In this document: in pieces, positions 49,220-49,753 of the stretch
How positions within the stretch are numbered: position 1 is the first letter of the stretch
How the letters are laid out: each line of letters begins with the position of its first letter
IMG/VR virus record: IMGVR_UViG_3300045988_082835
Length of the DNA: 64,000 nt
Reading direction: 5' to 3' (one strand)
Origin: a virus
The notes under the pieces: generated by a model
The model's database searches: none
What the model was told of the DNA's origin: nothing
What the model saw: only the letters and a program-made list of their open reading frames with translations
Translations under genes and position numbers: made by a program

Positions 49220-49753
49220 ATGGGTCAGTAAAGTGATAAAGTAGACACCCCGGTCTGTGTTAAATTCCTACTTAGGAGGATATTAATGGTCATTACAAAC
49301 AATCAGTAGAAAGGAAATGCTGGTCTATCTTTAGCAATAGGATACTTTGGTTCTAATGGATACACTGTATCAGTCCCACTGAATGATACTCAATGGTATG
49401 ATTTAGTTATTGAAAAAGATGGAGTTTTCCAAACAGTTTAGTGCAAATTTACATCATCGAAAACTGGAGAAATTAATCTAAAATCCGCAGGTGGAACTAA
49501 AGGAAATGTTTATGATTCGATACTTAACCATCCTTTAGACTTGTTGTTTTGCGCTAATCAAGATATGAATATGTTTGTAATTCCAATGAACGATTTGATT
49601 CAAGCTGGAAATGTAAAATCAATAACTTTGAGAACAACCAGTGCCCCAAATTGTAAATTGGATACCAGTAAATACTTAGTTCGAATCTAAGATTTAACTC
49701 CAAAAACCGGTGCTTTCGAGCTCGAGTGGGTGCGATTCCCTCCTGGCCCACCA
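49220..49753 (+). tRNA. tRNA-Tyr(GUA)-like gene interrupted after CUGU by an insertion of about 440 nt (exon 1 about 49220..49258, exon 2 about 49703..49753); D-arm atypical
   Basis: acceptor gggtcag/ctggccc; anticodon stem ccggt/accgg; joined loop CTGT|AAA as in tRNA-Tyr; long variable region; CCA encoded. Confidence 0.4.
49286..49690 (+). CDS. PD-(D/E)XK homing endonuclease, paralog of 39469..39882, 2 in-frame TAG
   Basis: NDTQWYDLVIEKDGVFQTVQCK aligns with YDLVIEKNGKFYKIQVK; RBS AGGAGG. Confidence 0.55.

Follow-up and report, generated by a model that had tools for sequence, protein, structure and literature searches.

How a protein-coding gene can reside in the anticodon loop of a tRNA gene, without a ribozyme to remove it from the transcript, is the question raised by a locus in the IMG/VR virus record IMGVR_UViG_3300045988_082835. 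The stretch of this record that was analyzed (the window) is 64,000 nucleotides (nt) long, and contains at positions 49,220 to 49,753 a tRNA-Tyr-like gene that is split by an open reading frame (ORF) for a homing endonuclease. The tRNA introns of bacteria and phages are thought to be self-splicing ribozymes, mainly of group I and rarely of group II, and protein-dependent tRNA splicing is considered to be archaeal and eukaryotic. The insert was found to belong to an element family, present in dozens of gut and rumen phage contigs, which keeps a homing endonuclease gene inside a tRNA gene without a ribozyme, by mimicking a tRNA. Its two ends form a tRNA-like domain (TLD) that is flush with the insertion boundaries. 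A reading that stands about an even chance of being correct, given what the sequences suggest, is that the insert is a mobile homing-endonuclease cassette with the TLD in place of an intron ribozyme, that RNase P and the tRNA 3′-end machinery would excise it, and that an RNA ligase would reseal the loop.

Boundaries of the Insert in the tRNA-Tyr-Like Gene

An initial annotation had proposed that a tRNA-Tyr-type gene is split at CUGU/AAA by an endonuclease ORF (slashes mark insertion boundaries throughout), and had suggested a comparison with intron-less alleles in related phages. Such alleles were found in four related IMG/VR phage contigs (L001, L003, L004, and L005), and they confirmed the split. 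In these contigs, base 49258 directly abuts base 49703, generating the anticodon arm CCGGT-CTGTAAA-ACCGG, and the protein encoded by the adjacent AAA-ATPase gene is 81–99% identical to that of the window. Because the uninterrupted alleles fix both boundaries, the insert spans exactly 49259–49702 and lies between U35 and A36. The 3′-terminus of exon 1 is ...CCGGTCTGT, and exon 2 starts with AAAACCGG... The same insert is present in a fifth relative (L002/L052) and in the metagenome contigs L107 and L108, with endonucleases that are 98–99% identical. Judged from these sequences, presence and absence among near-identical phages is the pattern of a mobile element, and is typical of homing. Chance occurrence of the arrangement is not an issue, because homologous inserts split tRNA-Tyr in more than 20 other distinct metagenomic loci.

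The initial annotation was also right that the 3′ boundary does not end in G and that the D arm is non-canonical: the insert ends in ...TCCA, and the D loop lacks the GG sequence (G18-G19 are missing). The distance from exon 2 of the upstream tRNA-Leu gene, given there as 23 nt, is 25 nt (49197–49221). The T arm encoded by exon 2 is non-canonical as well (GTGGG-TGCGATT-CCCTC), with one mismatched pair in the T stem and the T loop TGCGATT. Since the uninterrupted alleles show the same D- and T-loop oddities, these are a property of the tRNA-Tyr of this lineage, and not damage caused by the insert. The joined 88-nt exons were not called by ARAGORN, and the uninterrupted L001 allele (5885–5972 of that contig) scored 32.4 bits against the Rfam tRNA model (gathering score 29, E = 1.6e-5), so that the joined sequence reads as a weak tRNA. 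The canonical tRNA-Tyr genes of more distant phage relatives share with the uninterrupted L001 allele the acceptor stem GGGTCAG/CTGGCCC, the discriminator A, the CTGTAAA loop, and the GCTTTCGAGC variable arm.

A tRNA-Like Domain at the Insert Ends

The interpretation offered in the initial annotation was borne out in part; what it had overlooked is that the insert termini form an acceptor stem, a T arm, and an NCCA end, flush with both insertion boundaries in the window (Table 1). In this arrangement, the endonuclease mRNA occupies the place of the D and anticodon arms, as in the layout of transfer-messenger RNA (tmRNA). An unconstrained minimum free energy fold of 49222–49753 (532 nt) recovered the acceptor and anticodon stems of the tRNA-Tyr-like gene, together with the acceptor helix and T arm of the TLD (z = −3.06). 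The TLD is almost certainly real. The idea that it is a copy of the 3′ half of the host tRNA-Tyr was considered and rejected, as there is no sequence similarity between the two.

Table 1. Features of the split tRNA-Tyr-like gene, the three forms of split tRNA-Tyr genes among its homologs, and other features of the window (positions are those of the window).
Feature	Position	Strand	Remarks
tRNA-Tyr-like exon 1	49222..49258	+	acceptor 5′ strand GGGTCAG, non-canonical D arm, anticodon stem CCGGT, loop bases C32 U33 G34 U35
Insert, mobile endonuclease cassette with both ends forming the TLD	49259..49702	+	444 nt; absent from L001, L003–L005; present in L052, L107, L108; no Rfam match at E ≤ 10
Acceptor-like 5′ strand GTTAAAT	49259..49265	+	starts at insert base 1, the predicted RNase P site CUGU/G; 7/7 Watson-Crick pairs with 49692–49698
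Shine-Dalgarno sequence AGGAGG	49274..49279	+	6 bases upstream of ATG; read from the sequence
PD-(D/E)XK homing-endonuclease ORF	49286..49690	+	134 aa; in-frame TAG (= Gln) codons at 49307 and 49439
T-arm mimic CTTAG-TTCGAAT-CTAAG	49675..49691	+	overlaps last ORF codons and TAA stop; 5-bp stem with closing G-C
Acceptor-like 3′ strand ATTTAAC	49692..49698	+	pairs with GTTAAAT; directly 3′ of T-arm mimic
Discriminator-like T followed by CCA	49699..49702	+	last A is the insert end and predicted 3′ processing site
tRNA-Tyr-like exon 2	49703..49753	+	A36 A37 A38, anticodon stem ACCGG, long variable arm, acceptor CTGGCCC, then A and CCA
Form 1, CTGT/G...N-CCA/AAA			window, L060, L064, L088, L111, L126, L187
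Form 2, CTG/G...N-CCA/TAAA			L087, L165, L147, L188; L082 degenerate
Form 3, CTG/G...GGC-A/TAAA			ends right after discriminator, without CCA; L083, L173, L151, L162, L166, L175, L181, L183
tRNA-Asp(GUC) split by 468-nt insert	39388..39932	+	insert 39424–39891, PF11645 ORF 39460–39882
RNA-repair gene cluster downstream of the tRNA array (context)	56015..64000	+	DUF2828/DUF7788 vWA-type protein, major-vault-protein (MVP)-like 807-aa protein, RlaP nucleotidyltransferase, two metallophosphoesterases

Homologous Inserts and Covariation

Searches with the endonuclease in IMG/VR, metagenome contigs, and GTDB genomes yielded about 145 loci. Split tRNA-Tyr loci were identified among them by rejoining the flanks of the ORF and requiring a tRNA-Tyr call by ARAGORN across the junction. 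This identified about 20 distinct split tRNA-Tyr genes, all of the same design and in three forms (Table 1), whose joined exons were called as canonical tRNA-Tyr. Insert length is 437–447 nt in all three forms. Two registers of insertion are represented, U35/A36 and G34/U35, and in both of them the start and end of the TLD coincide exactly with the insert ends. In forms 2 and 3, the stop codon of the ORF is provided by U35-A36-A37 of exon 2, leaving zero non-coding bases at the 3′ end of the insert.

The pairing proposed for the TLD was evaluated in an alignment of 19 distinct homologous insert end sequences, comprising 12 pairs (the 7-bp acceptor and the 5-bp T stem). These pairs were formed in 92.5% of cells, compared with 68.5% in shuffled alignments (0 of 500 reached the observed value), and sliding the partner strand by 1–3 columns reduced pairing to 21–50%. 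Compensatory changes on both sides were found in 10 of the 12 pairs. In the acceptor helix, 91.7% of cells were paired, six of seven pairs showed compensatory changes, and G1-C72 was present in 17 of the 19 inserts; the T stem was paired in 93.7% of cells, with compensation in four of five pairs and the closing G-C pair (G53-C61) in 18 of 19. All 19 inserts contain the T-loop sequence T[TG]C[AG]A.., with the consensus TTCRANN. A scan for tRNA-like matches was positive in 20 of 21 split tRNA-Tyr loci, though several of the top-scoring matches were the own arms of the host tRNA-Tyr; the TLD of the insert itself was read directly in 20 of these 21 loci and in the window, which together gave the 19 distinct end sequences. 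The scan also found the TLD in L052, L107, L108, and L187.

The TLD is restricted to intragenic copies. It was found in none of 36 distinct free-standing homologs, each of which lies 4–40 nt upstream of an intact tRNA-Tyr gene; these genes encode the same C-terminal peptide pattern, without the T-arm-like codons. Because free-standing homologs do without it, the TLD is needed inside a tRNA, and not for expression of the gene.

The 3′ end of the TLD was found to follow the 3′ ends of the tRNA genes of the same genome. All 12 TLDs that end in NCCA sit in CCA-encoding tRNA-Tyr genes, and CCA is encoded by 51 of 57 neighboring tRNA genes, whereas all nine TLDs that end at the discriminator sit in tRNA-Tyr genes without CCA, where only one of 15 neighbors has it. 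Two apparent exceptions are explained by an acceptor strand ending in ...CC followed by a discriminator A, which is not an encoded CCA. In all 21 cases, then, the TLD 3′ end agrees with the presence or absence of CCA in the tRNA-Tyr gene around it.

The Endonuclease and its Family

The ORF matched the Pfam family PF11645 (PDDEXK_5) with 55.4 bits (cut-off 26.1, E = 8.8e-15), and a profile built from 17 homologs gave as its best PDB match 2OST, the structure of I-Ssp6803I, over nearly the full length (E = 0.007). D39, E43, and K54 are invariant in the 17 aligned homologs and, by analogy, would be the catalytic residues. The PF11645 family members recovered here are tightly tied to tRNA-Tyr genes, being located either inside them or immediately upstream. 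Among GenBank phages, no close annotated relative of the endonuclease was found, only hypothetical proteins with 30–40% identity. Related contigs, which derive from gut and rumen samples, fall into bins of Clostridia (Oscillospiraceae, Acutalibacteraceae, and others), and a few into bins of Bacteroidales (Muribaculaceae, Prevotella). There is nothing unusual about the endonuclease family or the homing-type polymorphism; what is unusual is the architecture of a tRNA mimic without a ribozyme, and the excision route that it would imply.

TAG is a sense codon for Gln in this phage, as judged from the many long ORFs with in-frame TAG (up to 14 per ORF in the minus-strand ORFs at 3589–10873), and a suppressor tRNA(CUA) is encoded at 54919–54993 (+). 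The invariant Gln of the (T/S)(V/I)Q(C/V)K motif of the endonuclease is encoded by CAA or CAG in 106 homologs, and by TAG in eight, including the window (TVQCK).

Proposed Excision and Religation

RNase P acts on tmRNA and on minihelices, and the 5′ end of tmRNA is matured by RNase P. By the rules of this enzyme, cleavage on the 5′ side of G1 of the mimic, between 49258 and 49259, would leave exon 1 as ...CUGU-3′OH, ending in U35. A tRNA 3′ endonuclease of the RNase Z type would cut after A76 of the mimic, between 49702 and 49703, releasing exon 2 as 5′P-AAAACCGG..., with the 5′-phosphate on A36; in the CCA-less relatives, the 3′ cut would fall after the discriminator. The reported cleavage site of RNase Z is immediately 3′ of the discriminator when the precursor lacks CCA, and immediately 3′ of the CCA when it has one; some RNase Z enzymes require the acceptor stem only (PMC7479834; Thermotoga enzyme, PMC1540738). 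The match between the 3′ end of the TLD and the CCA status of the tRNA corresponds to this reported behavior (PMC7479834, PMC1540738). Cleavage of the TLD by tRNA end-processing enzymes is, on the strength of the conserved structure and its 3′ ends, probable.

The two halves would then be held together by the acceptor and anticodon stems, in effect a tRNA nicked in its anticodon loop with 3′-OH and 5′-phosphate ends. Such a nicked tRNA would be a substrate for ATP-dependent RNA ligases, for example the PF09414 ligase of this lineage, and sealing would restore tRNA-Tyr, with a junction reading ...CCGGUCUGU-AAAACCGG... Because the processing sites coincide with the insertion boundaries to the base, in two registers, the cuts would regenerate the exons with nothing lost or added; this coincidence is the strongest argument for religation that the sequences offer. 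The excised RNA would be the endonuclease mRNA, whose in-frame TAG codons may be readable only once the phage suppressor tRNA is present. By analogy with I-Ssp6803I, the ORF product would cleave uninterrupted tRNA-Tyr genes (tDNA-Tyr) site-specifically near the anticodon, and the cassette would spread by homing.

Every close relative carries a 4.8–8.5 kb cassette with a PF09414 RNA ligase between two phosphoesterase genes, and contig 084596, in which the same Tyr insert is found, is one of them. In the close relative L092, the ligase gene lies at 12269–13543. Genes for a Thg1-like protein, a P-loop kinase, and a further phosphoesterase are located downstream of the second phosphoesterase gene. 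A search of IMG/VR found 222 relatives of the ligase, and the co-occurrence data cover the best 80 of these 222, that is, close relatives and not the more distant TLD-bearing contigs. In the window, the ligase cassette is missing at a 67-nt repeat junction (63129–63195), the place where the relatives have it; it was either genuinely deleted or lost when the assembly collapsed at the repeat. Mainly because the cassette is missing here, religation of the exons into a working tRNA-Tyr is regarded as an evenly balanced proposition.

Alternative Explanations

The initial annotation had discussed the insert in terms of group I splicing chemistry, and a group I or other self-cleaving ribozyme intron, with a catalytic core overlapping the ORF as in known 35/36 introns or the I-Ssp6803I intron, would agree with the terminal U of the 5′ exon, and with the tRNA-Leu(UAA) insert next door, which has the classic U34/A35 position and a terminal G. 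PF11645 endonucleases are moreover known from group I introns of tRNA genes, and 35/36 group I introns self-splice in Patescibacteria (PMC13011429). The framing nevertheless fails for lack of room: only 39–40 nt of the insert are non-coding (28 nt on the 5′ side and 12 nt on the 3′ side of the ORF), whereas the minimum length of group I introns in bacterial tRNA genes is 184 nt, and those with an endonuclease gene exceed 500 nt (PMC13011429). No intron or ribozyme family of Rfam, including RF00028, matched the whole window at gathering thresholds, or the regions 47940–49800 and 39380–39940 at E ≤ 10. The group I end rule holds for U35 before the insert, but the terminal G is replaced by A, and sister elements follow G34 instead of U and end in A or T. 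The conserved structure is a tRNA mimic and not P3–P9. The little non-coding sequence, the terminal A, and the missing Rfam match led to the rejection of a ribozyme intron, which is hardly credible. A dedicated protein endonuclease acting on the terminal helix, either of the archaeal bulge-helix-bulge type or a PD-(D/E)XK protein working on RNA, followed by ligation by RtcB, is improbable, if less strikingly so. The terminal helix does juxtapose the splice sites, and the paralogous tRNA-Asp insert has only the helix, without a T arm. The catalytic domain of EndA is structurally related to the PD-(D/E)XK fold, and tRNA-intron splicing is among the functions of the PD-(D/E)XK superfamily (PMC3424549). 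Against this, no bulge-helix-bulge (two 3-nt bulges separated by a 4-bp helix) can be drawn, since the helix between the splice sites has 7 bp and a 4-nt 3′ tail and the exon CUGU does not pair with the intron UCCA, which rules this motif out. No EndA-like gene was detected in a Pfam scan of 36 proteins (32 from the window and four from the close relative L092), and the canonical T loop, G1-C72, NCCA, and the match to genomic CCA status all point to tRNA end processing. It is very improbable that the terminal complementarity and the subterminal hairpin act on DNA, like the inverted repeats or hairpins of transposons, and have no role in RNA. An exact insertion point behind a short fixed motif (CTG or CTGT), with no duplication of the target, would suit such a role, and the subterminal hairpin recalls the single-strand transposons IS200/IS605. 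Yet complementarity is kept while the sequence varies, whereas transposase sites conserve sequence; the hairpin retains the tRNA-specific T-loop consensus and G53-C61, NCCA tracks the tRNA CCA status of the genome, and the encoded protein is a homing endonuclease and not a transposase.

The explanation that deserves most attention after excision with religation, though it is rather unlikely, is a selfish insertion that inactivates tRNA-Tyr: cuts by RNase P and RNase Z would only release a stable endonuclease mRNA from the transcript of the tRNA array, the halves would never be rejoined, and the host tRNA-Tyr would be used. Phage tRNA genes are usually dispensable, and the free-standing endonuclease copies are likewise bounded by tRNA processing sites, those of the adjoining genes. 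Several observations both favor this explanation and weigh against excision with religation. The window lacks the ligase cassette of its relatives, so that sealing would require a ligase encoded elsewhere in the genome or by the host, unless the cassette was lost to an assembly collapse. Its tRNA-Tyr is already non-canonical and missed by ARAGORN, and may function poorly even when uninterrupted. In L067–L070 and L091 (about 2960–3440), a homologous ORF separates tRNA-Tyr-like halves, but there is no TLD, and the bases needed to rebuild the anticodon loop are missing; non-spliceable insertions therefore exist, and these look dead. Two further interrupted Tyr-like genes (L061 and L141) also have no TLD and a loop that is not rebuildable, and like the former are apparently decayed insertions. 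Other points count against the proposed route itself. Few independent lineages may underlie the CCA correlation, recent homing in place of selection could account for the intact exons, and we infer both cuts (by RNase P and by RNase Z), the sealing of the halves, and the target specificity of the endonuclease on DNA. Cleavage by the Bacillus-type RNase Z is strongly inhibited by an encoded CCA (PMC7479834), and the 3′ cut after CCA would therefore depend on the enzyme of the host. What an insertion without rejoining leaves unexplained, however, is the base-exact match of the TLD ends to the insertion boundaries, in two registers and with the exons unaltered. The joined exons still form a canonical tRNA-Tyr in about 20 divergent loci, and the split gene is the only tRNA-Tyr gene in the otherwise near-complete tRNA set of the window.

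Relation to Known Systems

Excision of a tRNA-dressed endonuclease mRNA by RNase P and RNase Z, with resealing by a phage repair ligase, would constitute a third route of tRNA splicing and the first ribozyme-free one in bacteria or phages; repair ligases would double as splicing ligases, and nested inserts such as the tRNA introns of Lak phages would belong to the same class. This wider proposal is offered tentatively, with somewhat less than even confidence. No tRNA insert that combines an endonuclease gene with a flanking tRNA mimic turned up in full-text literature searches.

I-Ssp6803I, the best PDB match of the family profile, is encoded in the group I intron of Synechocystis tRNA-fMet, and shares with the Tyr insert the PF11645 family, a target in the anticodon loop of a tRNA gene, and presence/absence polymorphism. 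However, I-Ssp6803I sits in a self-splicing group I ribozyme, whereas the Tyr insert has no ribozyme, and its ORF fills the insert within a tRNA-mimic frame. The tRNA genes known to contain PF11645 endonucleases within group I introns are those for tRNA-fMet and tRNA-Arg (PMC13011429). The self-splicing introns of Patescibacteria, demonstrated in vitro, are located at 35/36 of tRNA-Asn, tRNA-Asp, and tRNA-Tyr, are 184–894 nt long, and end in G (PMC13011429). They occupy the same site after U35 in the same GUN-anticodon tRNAs, and are likewise missed or mis-assigned by ARAGORN; they are G-ending ribozymes, however, while the Tyr insert ends in A, has its 39–40 non-coding nt, and matches no intron model.

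The insert resembles tmRNA, including its two-piece form, in that an acceptor stem and a T arm are made from the two ends of the RNA, with a 3′ CCA and an ORF in the place of the anticodon arm. It differs from tmRNA in lacking G3-U70, in having an ORF with its own Shine-Dalgarno sequence and start codon, and in being nested inside another tRNA. The Rfam tmRNA model did not match the insert, and there is no sequence relationship between the two.

In Lak megaphages, "enigmatic" tRNA introns have been described, including one in tRNA-Tyr(GTA), that match no intron family, and an insert in one tRNA-Thr was predicted to encode a tRNA (Devoto et al., bioRxiv 10.1101/356790). Comparison of alleles that contain the insert with alleles that lack it gave the excision points; the authors put forward no mechanism (10.1101/356790). 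The Lak inserts are short and non-coding, whereas the Tyr insert is a tRNA mimic with a homing endonuclease, in which covariation and the CCA rule point to tRNA end processing.

The proposed sealing step has a parallel in bacteriophage T4, where Rnl1 is generally known to seal tRNA-Lys nicked in the anticodon loop, with 3′-OH and 5′-phosphate ends (reviewed in PMC3400036). As in the T4 PrrC/Pnkp/Rnl1 system, a phage ATP-dependent ligase would seal a nicked anticodon loop, and the lineage of the Tyr insert carries a ligase, a kinase, and phosphoesterases. The T4 nick is damage inflicted by the host, whereas the nick in tRNA-Tyr would be a programmed product of mobile-element excision. Archaeal and eukaryal bulge-helix-bulge introns (EndA, RtcB) are similarly ribozyme-free introns of the anticodon loop that are removed by protein enzymes and a ligase; the Tyr insert differs from them in having no bulge-helix-bulge, in its position, and in its predicted 3′-OH/5′-phosphate ends as opposed to cyclic phosphate and 5′-OH. 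In SOS splicing, animal mRNAs lose DNA transposons at the RNA level through their paired termini, with the help of cellular nucleases and an RNA ligase (PMC12779559). That process differs in being eukaryotic, in acting on mRNA, and in using inverted terminal repeats with no tRNA mimicry.

If the halves are religated, the element family would represent a new class of introns, would give the RNA ligase and repair modules that are common in large phages a second job, might explain the "enigmatic" tRNA introns of megaphages, and would suggest a simple rule for designing inserts that can be excised from structured RNAs. Even without religation, the release of a selfish gene from a tRNA transcript by means of a tRNA mimic would be a novelty.

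The tRNA-Asp and tRNA-Leu Inserts

The initial annotation had proposed that one endonuclease family invaded two tRNAs at the identical loop position, with ORFs that are clear paralogs. The shared family is supported, as PF11645 ORFs split both tRNA-Tyr and tRNA-Asp in the window (E = 3.8e-23 for the tRNA-Asp ORF), and both proteins are I-Ssp6803I-like and contain the motif YDLVIEK[DN]G.F..[VI]Q.K. Their relationship is more distant than suggested, being limited to a 36-aa block with 47% identity. An identical position was not established. Because a C is present on both sides, the tRNA-Asp boundary is ambiguous by one base (U35/C36 or C36/A37), which places the insert at 35/36 or 36/37, and close homologs of the Tyr insert also occur at G34/U35.

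The ends of the tRNA-Asp insert form an acceptor-like helix of seven positions (39424–39430 with 39884–39890) with one mismatch, followed by one extra base. Together with six relatives (L100–L106), the insert shows a covarying terminal helix (CTTGGAG/CACTAAG) with one fixed mismatch; a single base separates the helix from exon 2, as in the Tyr form that lacks CCA. No CCA and no convincing T arm was found in the tRNA-Asp insert, where a 3-bp pseudo-stem is the best that can be drawn.

The tRNA-Leu(UAA) gene at 48321–49196 (+) is interrupted by a 789-nt insert (48356–49144) at U34/A35. The insert contains an HNH ORF (one in-frame TAG), has about 260 non-coding nt, and ends in G; uninterrupted alleles are present in L003–L005. 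By these features it is probably a group I intron, though it has no Rfam match at E ≤ 10.

Genomic Setting

Between 37.5 and 56 kb of the window, ARAGORN called 29 tRNA genes. No tRNA-Tyr, tRNA-Asp, or tRNA-Leu(UAA) was among them, and all three are present as interrupted genes. In its intron mode, the program recovered the Leu intron, miscalled Asp as tRNA-Ala(ggc), missed Tyr, and produced a chimeric "tRNA-Tyr" from two genes at 54171–54993. Because split genes of this kind are invisible to ARAGORN and tRNAscan (Tyr and Asp are missed in the window), the tRNA repertoires of phages are under-counted.

The array also contains a tmRNA gene at 44377–44707 (+; Rfam 71.6 bits), for which the tags of relatives read, for example, DNDYFENYLAA. 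A full-length ROOL RNA (RF03087, 350 bits) lies at 47254–47849 (+) between tRNA-Gln(UUG) and tRNA-Gln(CUG); in L002 and L003, the two Gln genes are 3 nt apart, without ROOL. Free-standing nuclease genes in or near the array comprise an HNH_2 ORF (38290–38811) and a LAGLIDADG ORF (44683–45192), both on the plus strand, and a gene for an RNase T-like 3′–5′ exonuclease (36604–37494, +) is located just upstream of the first tRNA. Elsewhere in the window are genes for a PTH2 peptidyl-tRNA hydrolase (13386–13823) and a PARG-like protein (12637–13401).

Further tRNA genes with unusual features were noted. The gene at 48116–48235 (+; Rfam tRNA 50.9 bits) has normal acceptor, D, and T arms, and carries in the place of the anticodon loop a 53–58-nt segment with two hairpins (GGTCTT-GTCA-AAGACC and AGCAA...TTGCT), which is kept in relatives with variation in the loop of the first hairpin (GTC, GTT, GAC). 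The tRNA-Ile(UAU) gene at 37581–37675 (+) is 95-nt long, and is read by the intron mode of ARAGORN as a tRNA with a 10-nt insert. In the more distant relatives L006, L009, L010, L017, and L018 (~5902–5976), the AAA-ATPase gene is directly preceded by a tRNA gene whose anticodon loop has 8 nt. ARAGORN labels it "tRNA-??? (taaa)", and its anticodon may be a four-base or an ochre-related one.

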